34,531 nt of DNA, taken from the IMG/VR virus record IMGVR_UViG_3300027932_000003, positions 1-34,531 of that record; one strand, 5' to 3'. The translations under genes and the position numbers were made by a program. The DNA is from a virus. How positions within the stretch are numbered: position 1 is the stretch's first letter; each line of letters starts with the position of its first letter. Under the pieces are notes generated by a model. The model saw only the letters and a program-made list of their open reading frames with translations. It was not told where the DNA came from and searched no databases. Below, piece after piece: positions 1 to 34,531 of the stretch.

Positions 1-50
1 TGTAGTTTTTTTCATTTTCTGCGAAAATTTCACAACTAATGCAAAAAATT

Positions 51-410
51 GAAAATTCCAATTTCTTTCGTTTTTTTCGTTTTTTTCGCAAATTTCCCAA
101 CTTTCGCAATAAATTGGAAATTCCAATTAATTCTACACCTCCAAATAATAATTGGAGCGGTGCAAAAAATTCAAACTTCCAAAATTCCAATTAATCTGTC
201 ATTTTGCGTAAATTGTGCAAAAAATGAGAAAAATTGTAAATTCCTAATTTCCTAAATTTGAAATAATCTATCATTTTCTGCAAAAAAGTTAAAAAATTGG
301 AAATTCCTAAATTCCAAATAATTCTACATTTCCAAATAATTTTTCAACTATGATAAAAAATACTAATTTTCTAAATTCCTAAATTACAATTAATCTGTCA
401 TTTAGTGAAA
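51..410. repeat. Imperfect short tandem direct repeats inside the ITR (unit approx aaattcc(a/t)aatt, plus recurring aattaatctgtcatt)
   Basis: At least 8 copies of the aaattcc-aatt motif seen by eye between about 51 and 395; aattaatctgtcattt occurs at about 190 and 388; mirrored in the right ITR. Confidence 0.5.
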
Positions 411-1289
411 TTTGTAATATAAAATTTGCAAATTCAAACTTTGGAAATTTGTAATAAATGTTAATTTGTGGATATTAATAACTACTAACTATAATATTAT
501 AATTTATAATTTGGAGGGAACCAAACCCACAATTTAAAGTTTTTAGTTACTAAACATATTCATAATTTATTTAATTTCTTAATTCTAGCAAACCAAAACC
601 TCAATTTAAAGTTAGAAAGATACTAAACATATTGTTAATTTGTTATATTTATTCAAATCGTTATGTGTTGTTAGTTTTTTGCGTTTAGTGTTGGAGAAAT
701 TGGAAGTTTAGAAAGAAAAGTTTATATACCAGAAGAAAGCATTTAGTATTGTTAGTGGGCATTATCTTTCTTCTTATTATTATTTTTTTATATATATTAT
801 TATTAACATTTAAATTAGATAATTATATAATTATGAAGTTATATAATTATATAATTAGCTAACTACTAATTAGTAGTTTATAATATAATAATTATAGTTT
901 TGTAGTTCAAGTGTAAAATATAGTTTCTTTTTTTCTTTCAATTCAATAGAAGATTCTGTATACAGTTTGGATTTATATCAGTATTTTATGGTAAAAATTG
1001 TAAGGAGATTTAATAATTTAGAGAATATGGAAACTATCTAGTTATTCAATATAATAATTATATAGTTATGTAGTTAGTAGTTTATAATTAATAAATTATA
1101 GTCAAACCTAAAATAGGTTTTTTTAGGATTTTTCACCGTTAGGAAACAATTTATGTTTGGTGTTATGAGAGAAATTGGAGAGACAGAATTTACACGTTCT
1201 CTATAGAGAGAGGTGGCGATAAGAGTTAAGGAGATAGAGAATGTTTTATATTCGTCATATAATATATGATGATTTGTAGATGATAAAAA

Positions 1290-1478
1290 ATGACAAGAGT
1301 ACATAAATTAACTGCTGAGCAGAAAAAAATTTTAGAAAGAATGCATAATAGAATAGATTATATTATCAAAGCTTACAAGGAGTATTTGAATGCGTTAGCT
1401 GAATTTGATAGAACTGGTGTATTAAAAATTCATGGGAAAGTCATTTATGAAAGAAAATATAATGATCATCAAAAATAA
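1290..1478 (+). CDS. ITR-encoded hypothetical protein (62 aa), left copy
   Basis: ATG-initiated ORF with balanced helical-looking composition; upstream ttttatattcGTCATAt (1241..1260) about 40 nt before the ATG matches the genome-wide promoter pattern; identical copy in right ITR. Confidence 0.5.
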   Translation: MTRVHKLTAEQKKILERMHNRIDYIIKAYKEYLNALAEFDRTGVLKIHGKVIYERKYNDHQK

Positions 1479-1516
1479 CATAATTATAAGTCGAAAAATG
1501 AAGACATGAAAAGGTA

Positions 1517-1536
1517 GAGAAAGATTTAAATATGAG
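1517..1536 (+). promoter_or_regulatory. BRE/TATA promoter (gagaaagaTTTAAATAtgag) inside the ITR, driving 1567..1764
   Basis: Purine-rich stretch plus TTTAAATA box about 40 nt upstream of ATG 1567; same module recurs at about 1937..1954, 3241..3260 and 3968..3986. The mirrored copy (32996..33015) sits about 39 nt upstream of ATG 32966 on the minus strand. Confidence 0.5.
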
Positions 1537-1566
1537 TTTTTACATATATGATATTGTGAATAAAAG

Positions 1567-1764
1567 ATGATGAGCATAAAAACAAAAATAAGTAAAAAAC
1601 AAGCGAAAGAATTAGTTTCGCAGTTTTTGCAAAATTCAAATTATATTTCGTATAAAAGTTCAACTAACTTTTATTATTCATTTACTGATAAAAAAGCTTC
1701 AGTCGATATAAAGATTTATGAATTTGATAAGAAATATTTTTTAGAAATTATCACATTAAGTTAG
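1567..1764 (+). CDS. hypothetical protein (65 aa)
   Basis: ATG ORF preceded by the ITR-embedded TATA module; T-rich tail downstream. Confidence 0.45.
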   Translation: MMSIKTKISKKQAKELVSQFLQNSNYISYKSSTNFYYSFTDKKASVDIKIYEFDKKYFLEIITLS

Positions 1765-1840
1765 TTTTTTAATTTTTTATTTCTATTTCTTATTTTTCTC
1801 ATAATTTGTTATTTTTTATTTTCTGCAATTATGTTAAATT

Positions 1841-1860
1841 TTTTTCAAGTTTGAGATAAT
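1841..1860 (+). repeat. T-tract + palindromic element, copy 1 (tttttCAAGtTTGAGAtaat)
   Basis: Recurring motif 3' of plus-strand genes; see also 2403..2425, 3893..3912, 13608..13629, 17214..17237. Confidence 0.4.
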
Positions 1861-1987
1861 ATTACTAAATATAGAGAAATTGTGTGTTGTATAGTCTAAT
1901 GATAAAAATAACGTAAGATATAAAGGTAAAAGTATAAAGAAAACTTTAAATATGAGAATGAAGATATGTATATTGGTGAAAAGAAAA

Positions 1988-2302
1988 ATGAACACACAAA
2001 AAGATACACAAAAAGAAGTTGAGCAAAAGATAGGCGAAATTTTATATAGGGCAAGACAAGAAGGAGAAGCTTTTTTAGTTACTTTAACATCTGAGCAATT
2101 AAAGAAGTCTGGTTTTGAAGAGGATAATGATTTCTTTAATTTTAGCAATGTAGACATTTATATAATTTATGACGGCGAATACAAAATTAAATATATATTT
2201 GACAATGATCCTAGCAATTTTATGTATGAAAGTAAAATAGAAATTGGTGGGTTAAAGGAGTTCATAGAAGTTATTAAAAAATATCTAGAAGTTTCAGAGT
2301 AA
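1988..2302 (+). CDS. hypothetical protein (about 104 aa)
   Basis: ORF track starts at ATG 1952, which lies inside the TATA box (ctttaaatATGag). The first ATG at the expected 36-43 nt spacing is 1988, so I place the start there; same frame and stop. Confidence 0.5.
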   Translation: MNTQKDTQKEVEQKIGEILYRARQEGEAFLVTLTSEQLKKSGFEEDNDFFNFSNVDIYIIYDGEYKIKYIFDNDPSNFMYESKIEIGGLKEFIEVIKKYLEVSE

Positions 2303-2402
2303 TTTTTTTCTTTTTTTGTTTCAATTTTCCCAGTTACCGTTTTTTTCTCCAAATTTCTATTTCTCCATGACTATTTTCTAAAATTTTCAAGACTATGTAT
2401 AA

Positions 2403-2425
2403 TTTTTCTCAAGATTGAGATAAAA
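2403..2425 (+). repeat. T-tract + palindromic element, copy 2 (tttttcTCAAGATTGAGAtaaaa)
   Basis: TCTCAA-GA-TTGAGA is a perfect inverted repeat with 2-nt spacer, preceded by a T-tract. Confidence 0.4.
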
Positions 2426-2492
2426 ATTCATGACTAACATTTATTGAGAGAAACATAAATATGTCATAAATATAAAAGAAAATCGATATATT

Positions 2493-3017
2493 ATGAATAT
2501 AGTTTTGAGAGAATTGAATAAAGAAAAATTTAATATAAATATCACTGCATGGTTAGATATTGATAATGATATTCAAAGTTGTTATACAAATTTTAAAGAA
2601 ATTACGATAGTTACAATAATTCAAATGATTTCTGAAATTGTAGAAAAAGATGGCTGGGATTTACAATATTTTGAGAAAGATGAAGAAGAAAAATTATTTA
2701 ATGCATTTATGAAAAACTCTAAAATTACAGTACGGCTAAATAAAAAGATAGATGAATTGAATTATGATTTTAAAGAAACTATTGTTGAATTTGATTTTTC
2801 AGAAAGTGAGAAAAAGAAAATTGCAGAAATATATTTGAGTAATATACTTAATGAATATCGTTATTTAAATGACTGTATTTTGGAAAATTTAGCAGACAAA
2901 GATATTAATTCGATTTCAGAAGCTTTAAGTAGTGAAGTTTATCAATTATTAAGTTCTGATGAGATAAAAGCAAAATTTAAGGAAAAGATAGAGAAAATTA
3001 ATACTGAAAAAGTATAG
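2493..3017 (+). CDS. hypothetical acidic protein (174 aa)
   Basis: ATG ORF; promoter cataaatatGTCATAaatataaaag at about 2451..2478. Confidence 0.55.
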   Translation: MNIVLRELNKEKFNINITAWLDIDNDIQSCYTNFKEITIVTIIQMISEIVEKDGWDLQYFEKDEEEKLFNAFMKNSKITVRLNKKIDELNYDFKETIVEFDFSESEKKKIAEIYLSNILNEYRYLNDCILENLADKDINSISEALSSEVYQLLSSDEIKAKFKEKIEKINTEKV

Positions 3018-3032
3018 ATAAGATGTGAAAAT

Positions 3033-3194
3033 ATGGATTTAAATGCTCCATTAGATCCAATATGGCTTTTGGTTATTGTTGGAATTTTTTATGAATTATT
3101 ATTTATCTTTTTCTTATTGGAATTAAGACAGATAATGAAACGAATTGAAGAAGAAGAATTAGTCAGAATGTTAAAAAAGAAATATAAAAATTAA
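3033..3194 (+). CDS. small hypothetical membrane protein (53 aa)
   Basis: Hand-translated: MDLNAPLDPIWLLVIVGIFYELLFIFFLLELRQIMKRIEEEELVRMLKKKYKN; one hydrophobic helix followed by a charged tail; starts 16 nt after the stop of 2493..3017; below the ORF-track size cutoff. Confidence 0.3.
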   Translation: MDLNAPLDPIWLLVIVGIFYELLFIFFLLELRQIMKRIEEEELVRMLKKKYKN

Positions 3195-3293
3195 ATAAAT
3201 TTTCACTAAAAATATGGCGTAAGCTACAAAGATAAAAGTTTAGAGAAAACTTTAAATATAAGTTTAGACATATGTTATATTGAGGTAAGAAGA

Positions 3294-3461
3294 ATGAAAG
3301 AAGTAAAAGTTGGAAATTCGAGATATTATATAAGTTCAAGAGATGATGAGATAAGTGTAATACATGAGTTAGTTCAAAAAGGTTACTCCATAAGTCAAAT
3401 AGCTAGTTTGTTGAATATTTCAGAAAGAAAAATTAAAAAATACTTAGAAGATTGTTGGTAA
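3294..3461 (+). CDS. small helix-turn-helix DNA-binding protein (55 aa)
   Basis: Hand-translated: MKEVKVGNSRYYISSRDDEISVIHELVQKGYSISQIASLLNISERKIKKYLEDCW; GYSISQIASLLNISERKIKKYL is a typical HTH; TATA module at 3241..3260 and gaggt 8 nt upstream of the ATG; missed by the ORF track. Confidence 0.45.
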   Translation: MKEVKVGNSRYYISSRDDEISVIHELVQKGYSISQIASLLNISERKIKKYLEDCW

Positions 3462-3642
3462 GTTATTTCTTTTTTTGATTTTTAATTTTTTCTTTTCTTT
3501 TTATTTTTATGTTTTATTATTTTTAGTTTTAAAATATCAATACAAAATTTTCGATAAATTTTGGAATTGAAAGATATGAATGTAAAAGTTTGAAGAAAAT
3601 TTTATAAAGGGCAAATGACATAATGTAAAATTGGAGGTAAAT

Positions 3643-3843
3643 ATGAATTGTGTAACAATTGAACAAAAAGGCAAATATACGTACATAAAATGTAAAAAAT
3701 GTGGAAATGTGCTAATTACAAATGATCCAGAATTATCGTTAGCTCCAATAAAAAATAAACAATTAATATCAATATCTAGCTGTGAGCATTTTCAAGTTAT
3801 TGAAAATGAAGATACAGTCGAAATTATATCAAAACAAAGTTAA
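3643..3843 (+). CDS. hypothetical protein with Cys-rich putative metal-binding motifs (66 aa)
   Basis: ORF track starts at TTG 3631; ATG 3643 is preceded by ggaggt (Shine-Dalgarno-like) and lies about 40 nt from the TATA at about 3597; contains CKKCG and SSCEH. Confidence 0.45.
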   Translation: MNCVTIEQKGKYTYIKCKKCGNVLITNDPELSLAPIKNKQLISISSCEHFQVIENEDTVEIISKQS

Positions 3844-3892
3844 TTTTTTTCTTTTTTAGTTTTAACTTTCTATTTTCTATTTTTATGTTCCA

Positions 3893-3912
3893 TTTTTCTC
3901 AAGTTTGATATA
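3893..3912 (+). repeat. T-tract + palindromic element, copy 3 (tttttcTCAAGTTTGATAta)
   Basis: Same motif family, one mismatch in the right arm of the palindrome. Confidence 0.35.
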
Positions 3913-4014
3913 TTATTTCTAAACTGGAGGAATTAAAAAAGCGTAGGATAGAAACGTAAAACTGTAGAGAAAACTTTATATATAAGTTTTTGCATATTAG
4001 ATATTAGTGATAAC

Positions 4015-4251
4015 ATGAGTCAAAAAGTTAGGTTAGGCAGAAAAGAAAAAGCAGTTTTAGATTTTTTAAAAGAACATGCAGAAGGCGTTTGGAAGACCGA
4101 TTTAATTAATCATTTTAGCTGGGCTAGTCGTTATGATAATGTTATGAACAAAAGGTTACAACAAATGCAGAAAAAAGGTCTAATAATCATAAAAAGTGAG
4201 ATAAATCCGGAAAGCGGAAGAAGTAAGCAAAGAGTTTATTTAAAACAATAA
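4015..4251 (+). CDS. winged-helix DNA-binding protein (78 aa), paralog of 13704..13928
   Basis: Hand alignment with the 74-aa product of 13704..13928 shows shared R-GxxE, W, NKR, KKGL, NPxxGR and VYL positions; TATA module at 3968..3986. Confidence 0.6.
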   Translation: MSQKVRLGRKEKAVLDFLKEHAEGVWKTDLINHFSWASRYDNVMNKRLQQMQKKGLIIIKSEINPESGRSKQRVYLKQ

Positions 4252-4284
4252 TTTTTTTCTTTAATCTTTTTCTTTTTTTTAGTT

Positions 4285-4476
4285 TTATTTTAATTCTCTA
4301 ATTAAATCTTCTATCTCATAAATAATATCTTCTATTTTTTCAATTTTTTCTTTTTCAAATTCATGTTCTTCATAGTTCTCAATAAGTTTCATACTTTCTT
4401 CTAGTTTTTCTTTTGCATTTTGTAATTCTGTAATTGCAGATTCTAAAGCTGATATTATTTCATTGTAATCTATCAT
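4285..4476 (-). CDS. hypothetical acidic coiled-coil protein (63 aa)
   Basis: ATG ORF with aagaggtg upstream; last gene of a leftward gene string. Confidence 0.45.
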   Translation of the reverse strand: MIDYNEIISALESAITELQNAKEKLEESMKLIENYEEHEFEKEKIEKIEDIIYEIEDLIRELK

Positions 4477-4479
4477 TTT

Positions 4480-4746
4480 TTACACCTCTTTTATTCTTTT
4501 CCAAACCTTTCCAATTGTTACACTTATATCAATTGACATTACAGAAAACCAAATTTCAAAATTTAATAGTTTATTGTTAATTTCTAAATAGCCAGCAATT
4601 TTATTTTTATTTTTTGTATAAAATATTATTCTTGGTTTTTCGTTAAAAATAAAAGCTTTATTTAGTAGATTTAAAATATCTTCTTCTCTCATATTTTCAA
4701 TTTTGTTTTTTGTTTTTTCCATTTGCTCCAAAAATTTTTCACTCAT
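4480..4746 (-). CDS. hypothetical protein (88 aa)
   Basis: ATG ORF; own promoter tttttatatGTCATAtaatac on the minus strand at about 4765..4790. Confidence 0.5.
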   Translation of the reverse strand: MSEKFLEQMEKTKNKIENMREEDILNLLNKAFIFNEKPRIIFYTKNKNKIAGYLEINNKLLNFEIWFSVMSIDISVTIGKVWKRIKEV

Positions 4747-4798: not shown

Positions 4799-5416
4799 TC
4801 AGAATAAAGAGCCAAAACATTTCGCTTTAAACTCACAGGCTTTACATAGATAATTATTCGCGCCAGGTATAGTTTTATAATCTTGTAATTTCATAAATTC
4901 TTTAAATTTCTTAATCCAGTCAATTGCTTTTTGCAGATATGTTCCAATTATAGTTTTATTTATTTGGAATTGTTTAACTTCTTTATTTATTCTATTTAAA
5001 TATATGATATAGACATTATCAATTTTATAGTTTTGTTGTTGTAATAAGTAATAGTAAATTGAGACTTGGTAAAGATGATATTCTTTGATATTAAAGTAAT
5101 TACTTGTGATAGTTTTTAGTTCTATAAGATCATTATTGCAAATTAAGTCAATTCTGCCTGATATTTTTAATCCTTCAATTTCGCCTTTTACTTCAACTTC
5201 AGATTTACAGCCTAGTTTTTCGACAAAATAATTTTCTATTCTCTCGTGATGTTGTTCTCCTAGGTCAAGGCTAATTTCATTTACTGCTTTCTCAAACTCA
5301 AATTTTCTACTAAAATAGCTTTTTCTAAAGCAAATTCCAATTTCGCTAGGAAATATTGTATTCTCTGGATATTTCATTTTGAAGCTTTGTTTTACAAATT
5401 CTTCATAATTTGTCAT
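4799..5416 (-). CDS. Cas4-like / RecB-family nuclease (205 aa)
   Basis: GRIDLI (motif II), IELK (motif III), [11 protein letters not shown] (QxxxY) and C-terminal C-x2-C-x5-C ([10 protein letters not shown]) plus an N-terminal Cys; aggtgg upstream of the ATG; follows the ATPase gene, as in the conserved rudivirus SSB-helicase-nuclease operon. Confidence 0.7.
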
Positions 5417-5418: not shown

Positions 5419-6726
5419 TTAACCACCTAAATTACTAAATCTCATTAAGTTTATTATTCTATTACAAATTTCTTCATTTTGTACTTTTCCAATTTGTAAA
5501 TCTATGTCTAATGCCTGTAATAGAATTTGAATATCGATACTTTGCTCTTGTCTTCTGGATTCTAAATTTTCGCAATTTACATAGTTATGAATACTATTTA
5601 TCTTCTGTTGAATTAATTCAATTAATGCTTTTAAAATTGAAGGATAAAGAACTCTTGCATTTATAATTTTATCGTAAGTTTTCTTAATTGCTAATTGAAT
5701 AATATGAATTCTATCTAATATTGCAGAAGTGAAAATTTCATAATTTTGTAGATAGTCTTCTAAATCTGGAGTTACTAATTTATTAATTGTATATGCATAT
5801 GGATTTCCAGCGTAAATAATTGGAATACATTTTTGTATAGTTGCTGATTTTGATTCTGTTCCAGCTCCTCTTGTCCAAATACAATTTTCAATTCCAGTTG
5901 ATAGAGTTGAATTTATAGTATTTAGTTCTTTTGTTGAAAAACCATCTTTCCAATTTTGAATTTCATCAAATATCAAACCGTTTGATAGAAATACAGCTCC
6001 ATACATATTGTTTCGAGCATCATATACCAAATTGGCATAAGTTGGAGCTTCCGTGTAATATCTAAAATTGAAAACTTCTTGTAAAATCATGAAAGTTGTA
6101 GTTTTTCCAGTTCCTCTATTAGAAATTTCAATATAATTTATTTGTCTTTTGGTAATTGGAGATTTGAAAAGTGGGAATAGTCTTGGAAGAAAGAGAAATA
6201 TATCATTTATTTCCATTTTAGTCGGGTCATATCCAAAACTTTGCAATAAAAGTGCATAAGTTGAATATTCTGAATTTGCTAATTCAAATAATTCTTTTGC
6301 AATTTCATAATTGTTGGGTGGCTCAATTGAATAAATATCATAAATACGCCAACCTTCTATACCTTTTCTAATTTTGACAAACATGTAACTTGTAATTAAA
6401 TTATAGAAATTTTCAGGATTATCAGCTATAAAATGTGGATCGAAATTTGCAGTAAAACCATTTTGAAATTTTGCTATAACTTCATCATCTTTTACTTTAA
6501 ACTGTATAATTTTAGAGATAAATTTCACTTCATCATTAAAAAGCAAATAAGATTGAAAATATTGTTGATCAATTCCGCGTTTGTAAGCTTTTAAAATTTC
6601 AATTTTCTTCCTTTCTTCAATTTGTTTTCCAGAGAGAATTATATTTAAAACTCTTTCTGTATCTCTTGGATTATAAAAAAAAGAATGAGATTTTATTTTT
6701 TCAAGAAGTTGATTTGAACTACTCAT
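5419..6726 (-). CDS. P-loop ATPase, putative helicase (435 aa)
   Basis: Walker A NRGTGKTT; size and position between the SSB-like and nuclease genes. Confidence 0.7.
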
Positions 6727-6751: not shown

Positions 6752-7165
6752 TTAAAATTCGTCTTCAACATTCTTTTTCTCTTTCTTTTTCTGTGTTTTT
6801 TCCTCCTTTTGGCTTGATTTTTGTTTTTCTTCTTCTTCTTCTGTGTCTATTTCTTCTTCTTGAACAGCATTATTATTCCTTGGCGTAAATTTTACATATT
6901 CGTTTAATAAGTCAGCATATTTATTTAAGAATTCTGAAATTAATCTTAAATCTTCAGCATCATTTGCGGTTATTCCAAGTTGTTTTCTAAAATTATTAGC
7001 AGAATGGATAGTCATTGAGTATCTAACTTTTCCGTCTTGTGGTATTGCATTTAACTGTACAACTATTCTTTTTAGACCTTTGATTTTTAAAATTCTACTG
7101 GCTATTTTATTATTTTCTTTAGCTTGTTTACCTAACTCATCTATTATTTCCTTCAAACTTGCCAT
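6752..7165 (-). CDS. putative ssDNA-binding protein with acidic C-terminal tail (137 aa)
   Basis: Acidic tail EEEIDTEEEEE; first gene of the leftward operon; promoter aaatatGTCATAttataag on the minus strand at about 7184..7208. Function inferred from operon context, not from a motif. Confidence 0.5.
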   Translation of the reverse strand: MASLKEIIDELGKQAKENNKIASRILKIKGLKRIVVQLNAIPQDGKVRYSMTIHSANNFRKQLGITANDAEDLRLISEFLNKYADLLNEYVKFTPRNNNAVQEEEIDTEEEEEKQKSSQKEEKTQKKKEKKNVEDEF

Positions 7166-7265: not shown

Positions 7266-7538
7266 TTAAATTAACTTAAAGAATATAGATCTTATTAATT
7301 TAGATACTTTCATATTATATTTATTTGCTAATTCTTCAAGTTTTTGATAATATAATTCATCAATTGTGAAAAAAACACGCTCATCATAAATTTCACTGAT
7401 TTCAATTTCTTTAAATTCTTTTTGAGAATTTAGAATTTTATCTATTTCTTGTTTTATTGTCTCTCTTTTCTCATAAAAAAGATTTTTATACTTTGATGGT
7501 ATACGTAATTCGATATACTTATTTCTTTGCTTTTTCAT
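7266..7538 (-). CDS. hypothetical protein, possible ribbon-helix-helix fold (90 aa)
   Basis: C-terminal half RVFFTIDELYYQKLEELANKYNMKVSKLIRSIF fits a strand-helix-turn-helix (RHH) pattern; divergent from Rep across a shared 70-bp promoter region. Confidence 0.4.
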   Translation of the reverse strand: MKKQRNKYIELRIPSKYKNLFYEKRETIKQEIDKILNSQKEFKEIEISEIYDERVFFTIDELYYQKLEELANKYNMKVSKLIRSIFFKLI

Positions 7539-7609: not shown

Positions 7610-7954
7610 GTGAACGGTAAAAAAGTTTTTAGCTATCATTTTCTTTATGTTTACACGTATTTTATTACTATTGCTACAAATTATCACTATAATGATACGA
7701 CAAAAATCTATAAAAAATTCAGACAATATATTTATAATCATGATAAAAATTCTCATATTTTTTCAGTAAAAGAATATACAACAAGATTACATGGTCTACA
7801 TTATCATGTTTTAGTTTTCACGAATAAAAGGCTTGACTATTCCAGAGTTCATAAGCAAATGCCAAAACATTCAGATATAAATATTCAATTAGTTCCAAAA
7901 ACAAAAAATGATATAAAAAAAGTTTTAACTTATATGTTAAAAAATCAAAAATAA
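7610..7954 (+). CDS. HUH-superfamily rolling-circle replication initiator Rep (114 aa)
   Basis: LHGLHYHVLVF (HUH motif: H-hydrophobic-H followed by hydrophobics) and VLTYMLK (YxxK, Tyr at residue 108 by my count). The frame has no ATG before residue 84, so the start is GTG at 7610, right at the expected leaderless position. Confidence 0.75.
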   Translation: MNGKKVFSYHFLYVYTYFITIATNYHYNDTTKIYKKFRQYIYNHDKNSHIFSVKEYTTRLHGLHYHVLVFTNKRLDYSRVHKQMPKHSDINIQLVPKTKNDIKKVLTYMLKNQK

Positions 7955-8341: not shown

Positions 8342-8503
8342 ATGATGGAGAAAGTTAAAAAGGAAAGAACAGTTTTCGGTATAAATATAGATAAAGAATT
8401 AAAAAGAAAATTAAAAGTATATTGTGCAAATAATAATATCACGCTAACAGAAGCAATTGAAGAAGCTTTAGAAGAATATTTACAGAAAAGGGGAACTAAA
8501 TGA
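8342..8503 (+). CDS. ribbon-helix-helix (CopG/Arc-like) DNA-binding protein (53 aa)
   Basis: Hand-translated: [53 protein letters not shown]; promoter atataaataTGTCATAat at 8301..8318; missed by the ORF track. Confidence 0.55.
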
Positions 8504-11733: not shown

Positions 11734-11796
11734 CTTCAAGAGCTGATTAATCGAAAAATTTATGTATGTCATAATATATATAATTGTTGTGAGAGT

Positions 11797-11922: not shown

Positions 11923-11925
11923 AAA

Positions 11926-17206: not shown

Positions 17207-17213
17207 ATTTCAA

Positions 17214-23474: not shown

Positions 23475-23481
23475 TGAAAAA

Positions 23482-24933: not shown

Positions 24934-24953
24934 AACATCACCTAATTAAGAAA

Positions 24954-26014: not shown

Positions 26015-26620
26015 ATGAAAATCTTCACATTTGCAGGGTTTACAAAACATCTAAAGGAATTGGATTTTGATTATGTTGTCTTGGATAAAACTTTTAATGA
26101 TATAACTCCCCAGTTAATCGAAAAATTTAGAGATAAGATAATCTGGAATGAAACAAATAGTGATATAAGAGCCATAAGGATAGCTAAACAATTACTAAAA
26201 ATTCTAGAAATAGCAAAAGATCAAGATGATGACATATTTGCTATAGTAGATAGTGATCTAATTGTTCCAAATTTGAGAAATATTGACCCTAACGATAAAA
26301 TTTTAACTTTGTGCTATTGGCTTTATTACGACTGGGCTAATGAAATTAGACCATTTTGTTCAGGAACAAATTACATTTTTAATAAAAAACATATTGTAAT
26401 TTTAGAAACTGCAATAAATGTTTATTTAGAAAAAGAATATTATAAAGAATTTTCAGTGGATATATTTCTACATGACCATATTTTGCATATAAACGTCTTG
26501 AAGTTAGGAACTATCCATTATGTAAAAACTCCAGAGGGAGAGAAAAAAATGGAATTTACATTTGAAAATATAAATCAAGTGTTTAAACATATTCCAGAAT
26601 TTGTTTTAATATCTTGGTGA
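26015..26620 (+). CDS. hypothetical protein with DxD-like motif (201 aa)
   Basis: ATG ORF; promoter tatttGTCATAacttgag; IVDSDLIV could be a DxD nucleotide-sugar motif (weak). Confidence 0.5.
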   Translation: MKIFTFAGFTKHLKELDFDYVVLDKTFNDITPQLIEKFRDKIIWNETNSDIRAIRIAKQLLKILEIAKDQDDDIFAIVDSDLIVPNLRNIDPNDKILTLCYWLYYDWANEIRPFCSGTNYIFNKKHIVILETAINVYLEKEYYKEFSVDIFLHDHILHINVLKLGTIHYVKTPEGEKKMEFTFENINQVFKHIPEFVLISW

Positions 26621-26729: not shown

Positions 26730-27812
26730 ATGAGTGGTGATATTTTATTGCAAACTCCAATTTATTACGTTTATCCACAACATCATGATGTTTCTTTTAA
26801 GTTTGTAGCAAAAGAACATATAAAAATGCTAAAAGAAAAATATACAGTTTACGAAATTCCTGCTTTATCATTTTATCAATTTACTCCTTTCAAATATCCA
26901 ATTTCAATTATTCATCCATTCTTTTATTCAATGTGGCATTGGGGTAACGTTGAATTTTCATTCTTTGAACAATATAGATCTAAAGTTAGTCAAATAATAG
27001 GAGTTGAAGTAGCTGACAGTGATAGAATTTCAGAAAAATTTATAGATTATGCAAATAATTATGCAGATAGACTAATTGGAAATTCTGAATGGACATTAAA
27101 CGCTTTTAAAAATTCTGGACTAAAAATTCCAATTTTTAAAGTTGTTCATAATTTTAATGAGAGATTATTGGCGAAAAATGATGAATTAAAAGTTGATGAA
27201 CAAGTTAAATATATTGAAAAAGTAAAGAAAGAGAAAAATATAAAACTAGTAATGATATCGCTTTGGCATTCTGATTACAGAAAAGGAGCTGATTTATTTC
27301 ACGTAATTGTAAAAGAAATACAAAAAGAAAGAGATGATATTTATTTTCTAGTCAAATCAGGCGGGCCGAGGACAGATTTTCAAGACCTCAAAATGTTTAA
27401 CCTAACAGGAAATACAGATTTTGATAATATCGTAAAAATGTATAGAATTTCTGACTTGTATTTACTAACTTCAAGAGGCGGAAGTTTTGAATTAAACGGT
27501 TTAGAAGCTTTTGTATCAAAAATTCCAGTTGTAGCAACTAAAGGAGGAGCATGGCAAGAGTATTTTCCTTCACAATTGAAAGATTTATTAATTGATAGTT
27601 GTGATTATCCAACAGTTTTACCAGGAAATCCAATTCATATAGGAAAAGGAGTGGAAATGTGCATAAATGACGCTATAGATAAAATATTAGAAGTTTTAGA
27701 TAAATTAGATGAATATAAGGCAAAAATTGAGGAGAACTATAATTTTTGGCTAGAAAATTTTAGTTATGAAACTGTAAAAAAACAATTGTTTAACACATTA
27801 GAAAAATCTTAA
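26730..27812 (+). CDS. putative GT-B glycosyltransferase (360 aa)
   Basis: TSRGGSFELNGLEAFVSKIPVVAT resembles the C-terminal sugar-donor region of GT4 enzymes; aaggacgtggt upstream of the ATG. Confidence 0.55.
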   Translation: MSGDILLQTPIYYVYPQHHDVSFKFVAKEHIKMLKEKYTVYEIPALSFYQFTPFKYPISIIHPFFYSMWHWGNVEFSFFEQYRSKVSQIIGVEVADSDRISEKFIDYANNYADRLIGNSEWTLNAFKNSGLKIPIFKVVHNFNERLLAKNDELKVDEQVKYIEKVKKEKNIKLVMISLWHSDYRKGADLFHVIVKEIQKERDDIYFLVKSGGPRTDFQDLKMFNLTGNTDFDNIVKMYRISDLYLLTSRGGSFELNGLEAFVSKIPVVATKGGAWQEYFPSQLKDLLIDSCDYPTVLPGNPIHIGKGVEMCINDAIDKILEVLDKLDEYKAKIEENYNFWLENFSYETVKKQLFNTLEKS

Positions 27813-27838: not shown

Positions 27839-29035
27839 ATGGAATTTAAAAGAAAAAGTTCAGGCATAATAAAAAGTTTTAGCTCATTAGACATTTTTTC
27901 TATAAACCTACTTTACATGGGAATTTTAAGCGGTATAAGTTATCCTCTTTTTGTCTCAAGTCTTCTAAAATCTGTAAATTTACTATTTGCAATTTTGATA
28001 GGTGCAATTTTTGGAATTCCGTTACTTGCAATGTATTATTTACTGACTAAAAAAATTCCGCTTAATGGAGGAGATTATGCGTACATTAGATCTTCATTTT
28101 CTCCAAAATTCTATACAGTTTTTGGAATTTCGCTCTGGTTAATTTATGTATTTTCAGCACCAGTTTTATCAAACCTTGTATTGTTAAATTTCAATATTCC
28201 AATATTCGATAAGTTTTTAATTTCAGAACTATTACTTGGGACTGCGTTACTTAGTGTTAGCAAAAAAACAATTTATGCTTATATTGTTGACGCTATCGCA
28301 ATTTTACAAATAATCGTTTCGCTAATCTTGCCAATTTCAAGTTTCCATTTTCAAATTCAAAATTTTACAATATCCAATACTCTATTATCGGCATTATTAT
28401 TTGATTTATCTATGTTTTTATTTCTAAATGCAATTAGTTACATAGCAGGAGAAACAAAAAACATAAACAAAAATGCGAAAATCGGATATTTTGTAAGTTA
28501 TTTAGTAGTTACAATTTTAGCAGTATTGGACAGTTATTCAAATCTAAATATATTATTTCTACTAATGCCGATATGGTTTATGAGTTATATTTTTGTTACT
28601 TCTATGATTCAGAGTAGACTAGTTCAAAATTTAGCATTTGATAAAATCTTACCTGAAAAATTTGCAAAAATAACGCCTAATGCTTTACTGTTAATCTTTA
28701 TCGCTGATACAATTACAAACGTTTTAGAAAATCTTCTAAATTTTACAATTTCATTTGGTCTTGATGGCCTGTTATTTATTTTCTGGAACTTTATAATTGT
28801 TAGTTTTGCATTTCTGAAATTGACAAATAAAAAACTATTATTTTCAATAGTAATGATTAGTCTAATTTTACAGATCTTCTTATTCTTTTATTTAGGATTA
28901 CAAAATAGCGTATTTTATAATTTTGTAATTGAGGGAAACATACTATATACAATATTAAGAATATTGATAATGCCAATTGTTGGAGGAATTATTTACTTAT
29001 TGAGGAGAAAAGTGATAAATGTTGAATTAAAATGA
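27839..29035 (+). CDS. polytopic membrane protein, possible flippase/transporter (398 aa)
   Basis: At least 10 hydrophobic segments by eye; sits between a glycosyltransferase gene and 29032..29934, overlapping the latter by 4 nt. Confidence 0.6.
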   Translation: MEFKRKSSGIIKSFSSLDIFSINLLYMGILSGISYPLFVSSLLKSVNLLFAILIGAIFGIPLLAMYYLLTKKIPLNGGDYAYIRSSFSPKFYTVFGISLWLIYVFSAPVLSNLVLLNFNIPIFDKFLISELLLGTALLSVSKKTIYAYIVDAIAILQIIVSLILPISSFHFQIQNFTISNTLLSALLFDLSMFLFLNAISYIAGETKNINKNAKIGYFVSYLVVTILAVLDSYSNLNILFLLMPIWFMSYIFVTSMIQSRLVQNLAFDKILPEKFAKITPNALLLIFIADTITNVLENLLNFTISFGLDGLLFIFWNFIIVSFAFLKLTNKKLLFSIVMISLILQIFLFFYLGLQNSVFYNFVIEGNILYTILRILIMPIVGGIIYLLRRKVINVELK

Positions 29036-29934
29036 AATTGATTTTTGGATTAAGTTCAACATTATCATATATTTTAAAAACAAATTTTCCAATTTTAGTT
29101 AATCAACTAAGATTTAAAAGAAAAACATGGAAAAATGAAACATGGATTGATAGTGGCGGATATCAAATTATAATGCATAATCTAAAAATTTCTGTAAATG
29201 ATGTCTTGCAAAAGTATAAAAGTGTTAATGCTTACGCATTTTTTTCGCTTGATATTCCTAGCGTTTTTTCGCCAATTGATAAACGAAACTTTGAATATTT
29301 CGAATATCTATATACGAAAATTGAGTATATAGAAAAGATTATACCAGTTTTACATATTTATTCACTTCAAGATATAGATGAAGCAATTGATTTTTATAAA
29401 CAATACAGTTATTATTTTGCAATTGGTGGTATAATGACTTCTAGCAAAATGAAAGTTTTACAATATACATTTCCATGGGTTTATTATATAAAAAGAAAAG
29501 TTCCATATCTCCATATTTTAGGCATGTCATCTCCATATTTTTTACAAATTTTTAATAATATGCAAAGCATGGATACCGCAATTTGTTCAACAATTTCAAC
29601 ATTTAAAGAAATAATTTGGTTTGATAGTTCTAGGAGATATGTTGGAAATATGAAAACAAAAAGGGAAAGATATAAAATTACAAAAGAAGAAAAAGAACAA
29701 TTATTTGAATTTTTAGACAAACATAACTTTCAATTTAACTATGATTTAAGTAATAGAAATATTCTAGAACTTATAAATGCATATATGTTATTATATAATA
29801 ATTGGAAAATTAAGAATAAATATACAGAATATGCAGAAAAACTTAGAAAAATGGGACTAGATAGTTTGACAAGTGAGTTAATTAGAAATTATAAAATTGC
29901 AAATGAAATATTAAAACAGAAAAGAGAAAAATAG
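29032..29934 (+). CDS. hypothetical protein (300 aa)
   Basis: ATG ORF translationally coupled to the membrane protein gene. Confidence 0.55.
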   Translation: MKLIFGLSSTLSYILKTNFPILVNQLRFKRKTWKNETWIDSGGYQIIMHNLKISVNDVLQKYKSVNAYAFFSLDIPSVFSPIDKRNFEYFEYLYTKIEYIEKIIPVLHIYSLQDIDEAIDFYKQYSYYFAIGGIMTSSKMKVLQYTFPWVYYIKRKVPYLHILGMSSPYFLQIFNNMQSMDTAICSTISTFKEIIWFDSSRRYVGNMKTKRERYKITKEEKEQLFEFLDKHNFQFNYDLSNRNILELINAYMLLYNNWKIKNKYTEYAEKLRKMGLDSLTSELIRNYKIANEILKQKREK

Positions 29935-29948
29935 AAGATAAAAAAATA

Positions 29949-30503
29949 TTAACTTAACAATTTGTCTAATTCTTCATCATAAATTACTTCAACTTTTCCG
30001 TCTTTGACAATTATTTTGCCACTAAGATTTTCGCCGAAATAATGTAGTAACATTCCAAATCCTGTTGTTCTAGTTCTTCCGCTAATTTTGTATTCAATTT
30101 CTGCATTATTGTTACACCAAAGATGTTTCACATAGCCTAATGAGCCTGCAGGAGACATTAGTACGCTAGTTTGCTGACACTCACCAGAATTAATTTTTAC
30201 ACTTACATCTCCTCTAAATCCACTAGGAATTTCGATTAAGTATAATGTCGAATTTGGCTCATATTTTATCACTAAAGTTCCTTTTTCAGTTTGAATCATT
30301 TTGGCATTTGATAATTTTAATGCAATTGAACTAACTGACTCAAATTCTATAAAACTTCCATTCCCATCACTTTTAACAAACCTTCCGCTGATATAAATAA
30401 TTCTGCCTCTTTTTCTGGAACCAATACCAGTAAGATCTAATTGTTTATCTTCAAAATATGGATATTTTCCATCTTTTAAACTAACTGGAACTTTGTAACT
30501 CAC
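29949..30503 (-). CDS. hypothetical protein (184 aa), GTG start
   Basis: No in-frame ATG before residue 69; GTG at 30503 is preceded by gaggtaat; 10 nt after the upstream gene. Confidence 0.5.
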   Translation of the reverse strand: MSYKVPVSLKDGKYPYFEDKQLDLTGIGSRKRGRIIYISGRFVKSDGNGSFIEFESVSSIALKLSNAKMIQTEKGTLVIKYEPNSTLYLIEIPSGFRGDVSVKINSGECQQTSVLMSPAGSLGYVKHLWCNNNAEIEYKISGRTRTTGFGMLLHYFGENLSGKIIVKDGKVEVIYDEELDKLLS

Positions 30504-30513
30504 TTTTATTACC

Positions 30514-31236
30514 TCAATCTGTTTTATTTTTCCTTGGTCTTGGATGTGTAATTAAATAATATTTATTTCCGCTTAACATAACCGAATTTTCACCATGATC
30601 TGGAGATTTAATAACAAATACAGTAGCGTCTTGTGGATGTACTAAAAACGTAGAACCAGGTGTTGAAAATAAATCAGTAGCTAATACAGTATTTGAAAAT
30701 TGTATTTCATGATTATAAATTGTTAAACTACTTACATGATTGAGACTAAGATTTAATTCACCATTTGGCGGTGGAACTTCATAAATTTCTAGATTTCCTT
30801 GATTATATGTCAAATGAAATTCGTATAATTGACCTTTTATGAAATAATCATAAACTTCTATTGAATAATTGCTATAAGAAATTAATAATTCTTTTGAACT
30901 AAGATTTAAAAGTTCTAGTTCTTTTAATATAATGTTTTTCATATCTTCTAAACTTCTTGTAATTTTATTTCTTCTATAGACAGATATTATTGGCGATACT
31001 GGCGTATAATATATTCCTTTTACTTCATCCAATTGATCATCAATATTTCTAAAACATCCATTAAATGTCATACCGCTTCTTGAAACATATTTAGAACAAT
31101 TAATAAAATGATTAGATATTAACGAAATTTTGGTAACTTGACCATTTGTATGTTTCAACATAAAAACGATTGGCAAATATTTAATTTGTTTTAAAATTTT
31201 AACTTCATATTTTTTAACTTGATCTTCTTGAGACAT
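30514..31236 (-). CDS. hypothetical protein (about 240 aa)
   Basis: ORF track start 31248 is GTG; ATG 31236 is preceded by aggtga and by tttaaatttGTCATAtagc. Confidence 0.55.
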   Translation of the reverse strand: MSQEDQVKKYEVKILKQIKYLPIVFMLKHTNGQVTKISLISNHFINCSKYVSRSGMTFNGCFRNIDDQLDEVKGIYYTPVSPIISVYRRNKITRSLEDMKNIILKELELLNLSSKELLISYSNYSIEVYDYFIKGQLYEFHLTYNQGNLEIYEVPPPNGELNLSLNHVSSLTIYNHEIQFSNTVLATDLFSTPGSTFLVHPQDATVFVIKSPDHGENSVMLSGNKYYLITHPRPRKNKTD

Positions 31237-31322
31237 ACGATCTATCACCTGTAAAATATCATATGCTATATGACAAATTTAAAGCATTCGAAAAGTCTCG
31301 ATTTAGAAAAATATAAAAAAAA

Positions 31323-31607
31323 TTATTTTTCATAATATTCTATTGTAATTCTATCAATTGGAAAATCATATCCTGTTATCATCTCTAAAGTTTTCCTAGG
31401 CTCTCTGACTAGTAAGCAAAATAATTCATCAAAATTTTTAACTCCAAAATCTTCATAAATACTACTACTGAAATCTCTAACTTCTCTGTTAATTTCAGTC
31501 TCGATTAAACAATATTTTTGTTCATAATCTGTAATAAAATAACTTTCTTCTTCTGATAAAATAATTCTAAAACCATAGTTATATTTTTCAACTATTATAT
31601 CAACCAT
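31323..31607 (-). CDS. hypothetical protein (94 aa)
   Basis: ATG ORF with aggtgaagg upstream; second gene of a two-gene unit. Confidence 0.5.
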   Translation of the reverse strand: MVDIIVEKYNYGFRIILSEEESYFITDYEQKYCLIETEINREVRDFSSSIYEDFGVKNFDELFCLLVREPRKTLEMITGYDFPIDRITIEYYEK

Positions 31608-31623
31608 TTTTCCTTCACCTCAT

Positions 31624-31920
31624 TTAACAATTAATTGTCCAGTCTCTATTTCCATATTTTTCCTCAAACTCTTGGTATTTTCTTTGTTTTAATAATTTTA
31701 TAATTTTTTTAACTTCTTCTTCTGTAATTTTTAAACAATTCCTTCCATTATAATGGCTAATTGTAATTGTCGGAGTAACTTTGTCACGGTTTACTGTTTC
31801 AACTTGAACATAATATTCGCCATTTTTTTCAACAATATAATAATAATAATCTTCAAACTTAGTTTTTACTTTTTTAGAATAAATTATCTTCCTATCTTCT
31901 TGATTTGAACTTTCGGACAT
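31624..31920 (-). CDS. hypothetical protein (98 aa)
   Basis: ATG ORF; promoter tttttatatttGTCATAaaag then aggtga. Confidence 0.5.
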   Translation of the reverse strand: MSESSNQEDRKIIYSKKVKTKFEDYYYYIVEKNGEYYVQVETVNRDKVTPTITISHYNGRNCLKITEEEVKKIIKLLKQRKYQEFEEKYGNRDWTINC

Positions 31921-32009
31921 TTAACTCATCACCTGTAAATTAACATAACTTTTATGACAAATATAAAAATATCTTAAGCTTTCGATTTATAAAAAAGAAA
32001 AAAATAATA

Positions 32010-32474
32010 TTAATCTTTGATAAATTCGATTCTATAATTTTTCTTCAAAAGATAATATACTTTAAAATAGAAAGGATCAGCGTGACTGACAATAGATTCT
32101 GGTACCATCTTCAGTAAAGCAATGATATCTTCTGGAACATTATATTCATTAGAATAGTAAATGATTACTTTATTTTCTTTGCCTTCAAATCTATGCCAGA
32201 AATACGCTCTTTTGTAATATATGATATAATTATGAAACCCATTATTCCACTCATCATATGCTATATACTTTATATTATCATCATTAACAAAAATTACAGA
32301 ACTAATATATCGATCATTTACAACATTTCTTAATTTTTCAAATAGATATTCCTTAAGCTCCTTATAATTTGCTTTTTGTATTTCATTCCATAACTGAATA
32401 ATTTCATATCTCAAAATCTCTAATTGATTAATTATTTGATTTATTTTTTCTAATTGTTGATCAAATCTATTCAT
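32010..32474 (-). CDS. hypothetical protein (about 154 aa)
   Basis: ORF track start 32480 is GTG; ATG 32474 follows ttttaaatttGTCATAatac. Confidence 0.5.
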   Translation of the reverse strand: MNRFDQQLEKINQIINQLEILRYEIIQLWNEIQKANYKELKEYLFEKLRNVVNDRYISSVIFVNDDNIKYIAYDEWNNGFHNYIIYYKRAYFWHRFEGKENKVIIYYSNEYNVPEDIIALLKMVPESIVSHADPFYFKVYYLLKKNYRIEFIKD

Positions 32475-32651
32475 TTTCACTTCTCACCAAATCAATTCAC
32501 GTATTATGACAAATTTAAAAATGTCTTTACTTTTCGATTTGCAAACTTTCTAAAATATTAGTAATTTTATTTAAAGCCTGAGAAAAATTAAGCATGGAGA
32601 AAGAAAACAAAAAACAAAAAAATAAAAAATAAAGAATACGAAAGAAAAAAA

Positions 32652-32966
32652 TTAGTATATATTCCAAATCAATAAAGCAATTAACTTCAATATTTCTTCA
32701 CGCGTACCTTCAATTACTTTTTCATTATCAAAACTCTGACTGACCTTATACAATTGTGCAATCTTCTGCAAAATTTTAATAACGTCTAAATCTTGTGGAT
32801 TTAAGTACTGATAATAAACTTCATTTTCACCATGTTTTATCTTTATAACTAATTTGTTATACTCTATATGCTTACCTTGCACTTGTTCTAACTGAATTAA
32901 AAAATTAACATTAACTTGTTGTTCCAATACCTCTTTCATTTGACTTTGACTTTTTTCTTGACTCAT
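32652..32966 (-). CDS. hypothetical protein (about 104 aa), diverged paralog of 1567..1764
   Basis: Driven by the right-ITR copy of the promoter; ATG 32966 is 39 nt from the mirrored TATA (ATG 32978 is also possible); product shares KE(L/V), VYYQY / FYYSF and DxxIKI segments with the left-end 65-aa protein. Confidence 0.45.
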   Translation of the reverse strand: MSQEKSQSQMKEVLEQQVNVNFLIQLEQVQGKHIEYNKLVIKIKHGENEVYYQYLNPQDLDVIKILQKIAQLYKVSQSFDNEKVIEGTREEILKLIALLIWNIY

Positions 32967-32992
32967 CTTTTTCACCATTATCTATTATCTCT

Positions 32993-34531
32993 AAACTCAT
33001 ATTTAAATCTTTCTCTACCTTTTCATGTCTTCATTTTTCGACTTATAATTATGTTATTTTTGATGATCATTATATTTTCTTTCATAAATGACTTTCCCAT
33101 GAATTTTTAATACACCAGTTCTATCAAATTCAGCTAACGCATTCAAATACTCCTTGTAAGCTTTGATAATATAATCTATTCTATTATGCATTCTTTCTAA
33201 AATTTTTTTCTGCTCAGCAGTTAATTTATGTACTCTTGTCATTTTTTATCATCTACAAATCATCATATATTATATGACGAATATAAAACATTCTCTATCT
33301 CCTTAACTCTTATCGCCACCTCTCTCTATAGAGAACGTGTAAATTCTGTCTCTCCAATTTCTCTCATAACACCAAACATAAATTGTTTCCTAACGGTGAA
33401 AAATCCTAAAAAAACCTATTTTAGGTTTGACTATAATTTATTAATTATAAACTACTAACTACATAACTATATAATTATTATATTGAATAACTAGATAGTT
33501 TCCATATTCTCTAAATTATTAAATCTCCTTACAATTTTTACCATAAAATACTGATATAAATCCAAACTGTATACAGAATCTTCTATTGAATTGAAAGAAA
33601 AAAAGAAACTATATTTTACACTTGAACTACAAAACTATAATTATTATATTATAAACTACTAATTAGTAGTTAGCTAATTATATAATTATATAACTTCATA
33701 ATTATATAATTATCTAATTTAAATGTTAATAATAATATATATAAAAAAATAATAATAAGAAGAAAGATAATGCCCACTAACAATACTAAATGCTTTCTTC
33801 TGGTATATAAACTTTTCTTTCTAAACTTCCAATTTCTCCAACACTAAACGCAAAAAACTAACAACACATAACGATTTGAATAAATATAACAAATTAACAA
33901 TATGTTTAGTATCTTTCTAACTTTAAATTGAGGTTTTGGTTTGCTAGAATTAAGAAATTAAATAAATTATGAATATGTTTAGTAACTAAAAACTTTAAAT
34001 TGTGGGTTTGGTTCCCTCCAAATTATAAATTATAATATTATAGTTAGTAGTTATTAATATCCACAAATTAACATTTATTACAAATTTCCAAAGTTTGAAT
34101 TTGCAAATTTTATATTACAAATTTCACTAAATGACAGATTAATTGTAATTTAGGAATTTAGAAAATTAGTATTTTTTATCATAGTTGAAAAATTATTTGG
34201 AAATGTAGAATTATTTGGAATTTAGGAATTTCCAATTTTTTAACTTTTTTGCAGAAAATGATAGATTATTTCAAATTTAGGAAATTAGGAATTTACAATT
34301 TTTCTCATTTTTTGCACAATTTACGCAAAATGACAGATTAATTGGAATTTTGGAAGTTTGAATTTTTTGCACCGCTCCAATTATTATTTGGAGGTGTAGA
34401 ATTAATTGGAATTTCCAATTTATTGCGAAAGTTGGGAAATTTGCGAAAAAAACGAAAAAAACGAAAGAAATTGGAATTTTCAATTTTTTGCATTAGTTGT
34501 GAAATTTTCGCAGAAAATGAAAAAAACTACA
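32993..34531. repeat. Right inverted terminal repeat (ITR)
   Basis: Mirror copy of 1..1539; the window ends with the reverse complement of its first bases. Confidence 0.85.
33054..33242 (-). CDS. ITR-encoded hypothetical protein (62 aa), right copy
   Basis: Identical translation to 1290..1478; mirrored promoter. Confidence 0.5.
   Translation of the reverse strand: MTRVHKLTAEQKKILERMHNRIDYIIKAYKEYLNALAEFDRTGVLKIHGKVIYERKYNDHQK

Follow-up and report, generated by a model that had tools for sequence, protein, structure and literature searches.

Results

A rudivirus genome bounded by exact inverted terminal repeats

The window, by which we mean the entire 34,531-nucleotide (nt) stretch of IMG/VR virus record IMGVR_UViG_3300027932_000003, is a linear sequence of 25.4% G+C that begins and ends with an exact inverted terminal repeat (ITR): bases 1–1539 are identical at 1539/1539 positions to the reverse complement of bases 32993–34531 in an ungapped self-comparison, as an earlier reading made without database searches (the sequence-only reading) had claimed. 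Between the repeats lie a single major capsid gene, a HUH replication initiator (Rep), a Holliday-junction resolvase, an operon for single-stranded-DNA-binding protein, ATPase and Cas4-like nuclease, and several large structural genes, and both size and ITRs fit the Rudiviridae, whose genomes are linear double-stranded DNA (dsDNA) of 25–35 kb (PMC5062984). By our count, 56 genes take up 82% of the window, in which no tRNA genes or Rfam families were found. Homologues of 30 genes of Sulfolobus islandicus rod-shaped virus (SIRV) 2 are present, and 30 core genes have been reported for SIRVs (PMC5454432). We conclude, at a probability of about 0.93, that the window, assembled from a metagenome, represents an uncultivated member of Usarudivirus, the rudivirus genus of Yellowstone-type SIRVs, and that its genome is complete but for 23 nt of hairpin turn at either tip.

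The genes that identify the family could be assigned with little ambiguity. The major capsid protein (MCP; 134 amino acids (aa), 10003–10407, + strand) matches PF12193 (1.2e-75) over 134/134 positions and PDB 3J9X (2e-72), is 99% identical to that of SIRV9 and 90% to SIRV2 ORF134 (ORF, open reading frame), and comes from the only SIRV2-type four-helix-bundle capsid ORF in the window. Rep (7610–7954, +, GTG start), the homologue of SIRV2 ORF119c/gp16, matches PF21578 (5e-47) and PDB 2X3G (1e-48), its H64-Y-H66 and Y108 residues being invariant, and this HUH Rep is restricted to the Rudiviridae (bioRxiv 2021.11.18.469202). The Holliday-junction resolvase Hjc/Hjr (16678–17064, +; PF01870, 2e-18) is 72% identical to SIRV2 ORF121; it is unannotated in the SIRV8 and SIRV9 records though the gene is present there, at 97% identity to the window protein by tblastn. 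A minus-strand operon running from 7165 to 4799 encodes the single-stranded-DNA-binding protein (SSB; 6752–7165, 73% to ORF131b/gp17; PF21017, 1e-54), an AAA-type ATPase (5419–6726, 79% to ORF436/gp18; PF13337, 9e-15) and a Cas4-like PD-(D/E)XK nuclease (4799–5416, 66% to ORF207/gp19; PF12705, 3e-9, and PF01930, 1.5e-6). Two GT4 glycosyltransferases lie on the plus strand, one at 10726–11733 (76% to SIRV2 ORF335; PF00534 and PF13692, 8e-12) and the other, an ORF356 homologue by homology and Pfam, at 26730–27812. The sequence-only reading had named all of these genes, and Pfam or PDB matches at the present positions and sizes bear it out; the large structural genes that it had listed were likewise found, as homologues of SIRV2 ORF1070 (1058 aa, 17621–20797, +, 73%), which we take to be the terminal-fibre protein, ORF564 (582 aa, 21726–23474, +), in our reading a minor structural protein, and ORF488 (14339–15763, −, 75%), presumably a minor virion protein.

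A fourth Yellowstone lineage

Megablast against 50,697 virus records returned rudiviruses only, the best matches all falling in the Yellowstone SIRV group, in agreement with the family assignment of the sequence-only reading. SIRV8, SIRV9 and SIRV10 ranked highest, at 88–89% identity over 79–85% of bases 1–25000 (SIRV8, 89% over 85%), SIRV5, SIRV6 and SIRV11 stood at 86–87%, SIRV1 and SIRV2 at about 77% over 15–22% of the same bases, and other rudivirus genera gave only short matches of 72–76%. By local BLASTN, average nucleotide identity (ANI) and aligned fraction were 87.3% and 0.90 for SIRV8, 86.8% and 0.91 for SIRV9, 86.1% and 0.87 for SIRV10, about 84% and 0.86 for SIRV4 and SIRV7, about 82.5% and 0.86 for isolates V3, V60 and V65, and 73.7% and 0.61 for SIRV2, such that overall identity to the eight usarudivirus references is 82–87% over 84–91% of the genome. 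Usarudivirus was defined for SIRV4–11 by Gegenees-type clustering on nucleotide similarity (bioRxiv 2020.01.16.907410), and the product of ANI and aligned fraction, 69–79% to the eight usarudiviruses vs 45% to SIRV2, places the window inside that cluster. Gene order is collinear with the usarudiviruses from end to end by BLASTN.

Within the genus, the three known Yellowstone clusters show 89–96% identity inside and 82–86% between clusters. Because the window reaches only 82–87% ANI to every relative, as against 89–96% within known clusters, nucleotide comparison places it as a fourth, species-level Yellowstone lineage, closest to the cluster from Norris Geyser Basin. Species are separated at 95% genome-wide nucleotide identity or above in the practice of the International Committee on Taxonomy of Viruses, and the window's best value, to SIRV8, lies below that line for every existing Usarudivirus species. 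None of the 50,697 virus records is 90% or more identical to it, 1362 bp match no reference genome, and an exact 50-mer from a divergent region had no match in IMG/VR DNA. A scan of IMG/VR with the 582-aa ORF564 homologue recovered relatives of at most 75% identity over comparable length, in addition to isolates already found; higher values spanned the N-terminal third only.

The genes for P98 and Rep and the SSB operon are found to the left of the MCP gene, and the permease/transglycosylase genes on the right arm. SIRV4, 7, 8, 9 and 10 have the same arrangement; SIRV2 does not, its P98 being on the right and its permease/transglycosylase module on the left. The sequence-only reading had proposed a distinct genotype on the grounds of a shorter left and a longer right arm; distinctness stands on ANI, but the arm argument does not, as this order is common to all Yellowstone SIRVs. 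Arm asymmetry is thus a trait of the genus, not a property of the window genome alone, and arm rearrangement in Yellowstone SIRVs had already been published (PMC5454432).

Physical ends of the genome

The first ITR mismatch falls at position 1540. Beyond 1600, 100-nt blocks of the two arms are only 24–41% identical, which is background for DNA of 25% GC, and a degraded BLASTN match reaches 1570 (99.4%) because both flanking genes have a common promoter. Contigs L016–L021, L049 and L051 agree with the right ITR (32993–34531) at 99.97–100%. Identical or near-identical pieces of the window occur in at least 10 JGI, ENA and Logan samples, with 100%-identical contigs from other samples spanning 1535–4561, 11726–25876 and 28624–34531, and the genotype is therefore recurrent in nature.

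In alignments of the termini, the first base of the window (TGTAGTTTTTTTCAT...) corresponds to base 1 in the records of SIRV2 and SIRV4, to base 53 in SIRV8 and to base 29 in V60. The start of contig L016 (JGI 3300027933, Ga0208549_100159; 33,146 bp) is 100% identical to the window from 34531 back to 28624, and beyond the window end it reads through a 46-nt turn-around, GTTCCCTAATTAAGCCTTTGCAATTGCAGAATATTAACTAGGTATT, followed by a perfect fold-back over 103 nt. Because L016 runs past the window end through this imperfect palindrome and folds back, 23 nt are absent from each terminus, and the full strand length, modelled from the window plus L016, is about 34,577 nt. The earlier description of the window as complete consequently holds in the sense of near-complete but not to the physical tips. 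For SIRV2, the published length of 35,498 bp compared with a 35,450-bp record likewise amounts to 24 nt at either end (PMC5062984).

The records of SIRV7, 9 and 10 read on through the same 46 nt and then through 270–500 nt of perfect fold-back at one end, and that of SIRV8 contains the 46 nt plus 6 nt of fold-back; the fold-back read-through in the RefSeq records of SIRV7, 9 and 10 is an assembly feature and not genome sequence. All mismatches between the arms of the turn-around lie within 23 nt of its axis, between TGCAA and TTGCA, at offsets 6, 8–10, 15, 20, 22 and 23. The turn-around is present in both orientations across records, as would be expected for flip/flop hairpins, and folding prediction for the L016 copy, as DNA, gives a hairpin with internal bubbles (−19.9 kcal/mol, z −6.3). 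The likely reason for the missing tips is that assembly breaks off at the point where the arms cease to be perfectly symmetrical and the two forms of the hairpin differ. Among nine usarudivirus records inspected, the window is the sole one with both ITR copies intact and a start at the SIRV2 reference base; none of the other eight has an intact ITR pair, several have artificial fold-backs, and five are labelled partial and three ‘complete genome’. Together with L016, the window supplies a full end-to-end model for the fourth Yellowstone-type lineage.

A promoter-bounded cassette at the inner ITR boundary

The ITR consists of a non-coding core (1–1238), a gene cassette (1239–1505) and a promoter (1506–1539). 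The terminal 500 bp (1–500 and 34032–34531) are the best-conserved DNA of the genome, bin 1–500 being 96–100% identical to all eight usarudivirus references and 99–100% to SIRV8, 9 and 10, compared with a genome average of 82–87% and 81–92% for the capsid gene region. This pattern points to strong constraint, or to homogenisation, at the end where replication and resolution would take place, and we presume this segment to be the replication origin and resolution region. It opens with two copies of a 65-nt tandem unit (5–128; period 65, 1.9 copies by Tandem Repeats Finder) that aligns with bases 4–130 of the SIRV2 record. The 21-nt motif AATTTAGGAATTTAGGAATTT, described as common to all Rudiviridae termini (PMC7156643), has four matches in the window, two per ITR, vs 0.05 expected; on the left they lie on the minus strand at 238–258 (1 mismatch) and 365–385 (2 mismatches), with plus-strand mirror copies at 34274–34294 and 34147–34167, respectively.

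The cassette contains a 62-aa ORF (1290–1478, +; mirror copy 33054–33242, −) that is 98% identical to its SIRV10 homologue and matched no family in a Pfam search. It is followed by the common promoter GTAGAGAAAGATTTAAATATGAGTTT, which closes the ITR and, by alignment of the two boundaries, serves the first unique gene on either arm, the ITR ending 8 nt past its TATA-like box. The same promoter motif also stands upstream of 1567, 3294, 4015 and 32978, and promoters of this type have been reported for early and anti-defence genes (PMC11065993).

This slot varies between otherwise closely related contigs. In L046, L047 and L053 (99.2–99.9% identical), which match up to 1238 and in which the ITR goes no further, the left arm joins 1238 straight to 1506 with no cassette; the left arm of L045 also lacks it, and L052, a 96.8% relative, holds a 75-aa gene in its place. 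On the right arm every contig seen carries the 62-aa cassette. Since the left slot may be empty or hold a 62-aa or a 75-aa gene, the inner ITR boundary is plastic as judged from these contigs, its position depending on whether left and right arm carry an identical cassette (the inner 301 bp, 1239–1539). The breakpoints fall within copies of the conserved promoter of the arms, pointing to a promoter-mediated exchange of cassettes that also sets ITR length.

An RNA-ligase-like gene between the structural genes

The two largest structural-protein genes are separated by a 271-aa ATP-dependent RNA-ligase-like nucleotidyltransferase (20829–21644, +; PF09414, 2e-11). The protein has a KxDG motif I (K30-Y-D-G), and 21 homologues all retain the candidate residues of motifs III, IV and V (G85-E86, E152-G153, K157 and K178). 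A sequence search of PDB gave no match, and relatives emerged from the fold search alone: an AlphaFold2 model with a mean predicted local distance difference test (pLDDT) of 86.6 found the archaeal RNA ligases 2VUG and 5D1O as top Foldseek matches (E 1e-8, template modelling score about 0.5). We predict that the protein is active. Among the 50,697 virus records the gene is confined to usarudiviruses, and it is absent from SIRV1 and SIRV2; virus records label it hypothetical, UniRef names it an RNA-ligase-domain protein, and our literature search found no paper discussing it.

The structural gene that follows is among the most divergent of those held in common. The ORF564 homologue, a DUF2341 protein (PF10102; phrog_7548), is only 63% identical to that of SIRV8, and DNA at 22856–23411 matches no reference. 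Next to it, the ORF309 homologue (324 aa, 23482–24456, +; 55% to SIRV4) is 187–228 aa shorter than the 511–552-aa versions in SIRV4, 7, 8, 9 and 10; its N-terminal part is missing, and it aligns only to positions 235–475 of 511 in phrog_10791. Contig L012 carries a 384-aa version. The divergence of ORF564 and ORF309 may be related to host range.

Arms and remaining genes

Arm genes stand behind two classes of conserved promoter. The left-arm variable region (1567–4251) is transcribed on the plus strand and encodes proteins of 65 aa (1567–1764), 104 aa (1988–2302; 116 aa if the start is at 1952), 174 aa (2493–3017), 53 aa (3033–3194), 55 aa (3294–3461), 70 aa (3631–3843, with no homologue in the eight reference genomes) and 78 aa (4015–4251). 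The 55-aa protein is a helix-turn-helix homologue of SIRV2 ORF83a/gp1, and gp01 is Aca8 (PMC11065993). RefSeq names in relatives look misleading here, the Aca8/gp1 homologue being called ‘terminase small subunit’ and the gp18 ATPase ‘protease’. Between this region and the SSB operon are minus-strand genes of 63 aa (4285–4476) and 88 aa (4480–4746, SIRV2 ORF84a homologue), and beyond the operon lies a conserved 90-aa gene (7266–7538, −) that is 94% identical to SIRV10 and 56% to an unannotated region of SIRV2.

The P98 egress-pyramid gene (7956–8243, −; 64% to SIRV2 ORF98, annotated ‘pyramid forming protein’ in relatives) adjoins Rep and is followed by two plus-strand ribbon-helix-helix regulators, one 56B-like (8342–8503; PF21432, 5e-14) and one CopG-like (8500–8646; PF01402, 2e-7), and by four small minus-strand genes (8702–8944, 8957–9232, 9288–9434 and 9467–9766), the last an ORF103c homologue. 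A 62-aa ORF55 homologue (10519–10707, −) separates the MCP gene from the first glycosyltransferase. The stretch 11797–14355 then holds small genes at 11797–11922 and 11926–12225 (+) and 12250–12447 (−), homologues of ORF84c (12485–12712, −) and ORF110 (12705–13088, −), a weak C2H2 zinc-finger-like match (13211–13576, +), a weak winged-helix-turn-helix-like match only 43% identical to relatives (13704–13928, +), and small genes at 13946–14170 (+) and 14167–14355 (−). The ORF488 homologue is succeeded by homologues of ORF154 (15814–16332, +) and ORF69 (16997–17206, +, 100% to SIRV9), with a 93-aa gene (16327–16608, −) between them.

Next to the ORF309 homologue come homologues of SIRV2 ORF158a (24457–24933, −; relatives annotated as S-adenosylmethionine methyltransferase), ORF269 (24954–25883, −) and ORF176 (26015–26620, +); past the second glycosyltransferase are the amino-acid-permease-like and tRNA-guanine-transglycosylase-like genes (homologues of ORF399 and ORF310; 27839–29934, +). 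The right-arm variable region (29949–32978) is entirely on the minus strand and encodes proteins of 184 aa (29949–30503), 244 aa (30514–31248), 94 aa (31323–31607, found elsewhere only in isolate V3), 98 aa (31624–31920), 156 aa (32010–32480) and 108 aa (32652–32978). The 244-aa protein is a homologue of AcrIIIB1, 40% identical to SIRV2 ORF249/gp48. Its gene at 31248 is preceded by the promoter AAATCGA..TTT(A/T)A(A/T)ATTTGTCATA, and so are the 98-aa and 156-aa genes at 31920 and 32480; a promoter motif of this type has been described for early and anti-defence genes of SIRVs (PMC11065993). By association of promoter class with the AcrIIIB1 homologue, we regard the 98-aa and 156-aa genes as candidate anti-defence genes, and the 94-aa gene as a further candidate by context. 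The 98-aa protein had no match in the 50,697 virus records or in protein families, and only 13 metagenomic relatives. Searches of Pfam, NCBIfam and PHROGs gave no function for the variable arm genes, and no AcrID1-family match was found.

Discussion

Alternative readings of the window

Several points weigh against an uncultivated usarudivirus genome with 1539-bp ITRs. Host, virion shape and geographic origin are taken from relatives alone, a literature search for the sample accessions having found no match, and closed ends are argued from the fold-back read-through in other assemblies and from SIRV1/2 rather than from the window, the L016 pattern being expected from a closed hairpin but also from the junction of a replicative concatemer. 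The nucleotide comparison covered eight of the eleven Yellowstone genomes, with SIRV5, 6 and 11 included in megablast only. For the left ITR, support for the inner 301 bp is indirect, namely the start of L054 at 1535, and among the contigs shown none joins the 62-aa cassette to the 65-aa gene of the left arm. This last point, together with the cassette-free left arms of L045, L046, L047 and L053, could mean that the 1539-bp repeat is partly an assembly product, in which the path of the right arm was copied onto a true left arm without the 62-aa cassette, leaving a real ITR of about 1238 bp and a 34-bp common promoter. We consider this quite unlikely. The sequence common to both contexts (1506–1539) is just 34 nt, below the k-mers used (k141 for the ENA contigs), so that real read support would presumably have been needed to join them; L054, from another sample, begins at 1535, a break that a long repeat next to unique sequence would produce but a 34-nt repeat would not; and SIRV2 also has an exact ITR, of 1602 bp, that contains a gene.

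A strain of the named virus SIRV8 or SIRV9, with no distinct lineage, is a much less probable reading still. It would account for the near-identity of the terminal 500 bp to SIRV8, 9 and 10 and for the many core proteins at 93–99%, but an ANI of 86–87% over 0.87–0.91 falls short of the values inside known clusters, the homologues of ORF564 and ORF309 are only 63% and 55% identical, 1362 bp are without a reference match, and neither the virus-record nor the IMG/VR searches brought up a closer relative. That the window might be some other linear ITR replicon (a lipothrixvirus, a linear plasmid or an integrated element) we regard as hardly credible: lipothrixviruses do have ITRs, and several genes in common with rudiviruses (bioRxiv 2021.11.18.469202), but the window combines the single SIRV2-type coat gene with the Rudiviridae-restricted Rep and the 21-nt motif of rudivirus termini, has neither an integrase nor a tRNA gene, and is collinear with usarudiviruses from end to end. 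The usarudivirus genome with a cassette on both arms thus remains our preferred reading.

A proposed replication cycle

By analogy with SIRV1/2 biochemistry, on which the steps that follow are modelled, the dsDNA of this usarudivirus would be covalently closed at both ends. Rep would nick in the terminal part of the ITR and prime strand-displacement synthesis, as proposed for nicking near the terminus (PMC5062984; bioRxiv 2021.11.18.469202), with SSB, ATPase and Cas4-like nuclease processing the displaced strands. Head-to-head and tail-to-tail concatemer junctions, each a palindrome of two ITRs, would extrude as four-way junctions for Hjc to cut, and the nicked hairpins would then be sealed by a ligase; resolution of ITR four-way junctions in concatemers by Hjc, leaving nicked hairpins for ligase sealing, has been described (PMC3157427). 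The 134-aa coat protein would wrap the DNA into a rod whose ends are capped by fibres of the ORF1070 homologue, and virions would leave through pyramids that P98 opens in the envelope of the host. The arms would carry small early or anti-defence cassettes behind conserved promoters, with recombination at promoters moving the cassettes; in the window genotype one cassette (1239–1505) would sit on both arms, giving an ITR of 1539 bp and not about 1238 bp.

We also put forward a two-part proposal, as speculation that we hold to be improbable taken as a whole: the usarudivirus ligase might itself seal the Hjc-nicked hairpins, a host-independent step, or else repair RNA against host RNases; and, separately, the ITR boundary might move by copying of promoter-bounded cassettes between arms. 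If the sealing role were true, the ligase would be the missing hairpin-sealing enzyme, and replication would be independent of the host at that step.

Comparison with known systems

The window is a useful reference and no surprise: it adds one new lineage, at species level, to a well-known kind and leaves rudivirus biology unchanged; it may serve as a reference for taxonomy, for mapping CRISPR spacers and for following the evolution of rudivirus ends and arm cassettes. Its ITRs, variable ends, core centre and resolution of concatemers by a Holliday-junction resolvase resemble poxvirus-type genomes, which have flip/flop, incompletely base-paired hairpins (PMC3157427, PMC5454432). The proteins, though, are unrelated and replication here would start from a HUH Rep nick, making this an analogy of mechanism and not of membership.

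The experimental model is the icerudivirus SIRV2 (NC_004086), which has the homologous terminal start base, an ITR of 1602 vs 1539 bp, and the same tandem unit and 21-nt motif. Its replication, structural and egress genes are homologous to those of the window at 64–90% aa identity, ORF564 and ORF309 being lower at 47% and 42%. The window has the ligase-like gene that SIRV2 lacks, and differs further in that its Aca8 homologue is present once, at a position outside the ITR. It also lacks homologues of SIRV2 ORF158b (dCTP deaminase in the record; we label it a dUTPase) and of ORF114 (AcrIII-1).

Likeness is greatest to SIRV8, SIRV9 and SIRV10 of Norris Geyser Basin, Yellowstone (NC_034623, NC_034620 and NC_034625), which have the same gene order and 30 core genes, an MCP 99% and an Hjc 97% identical, and the ligase-like gene. 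They differ in the ORF564 homologue and in an ORF309 homologue of 511 aa vs 324 aa, and are without the window's 98-aa, 94-aa and 70-aa arm genes. Their records are partial or end in artificial fold-backs, whereas the window holds both ITR copies.

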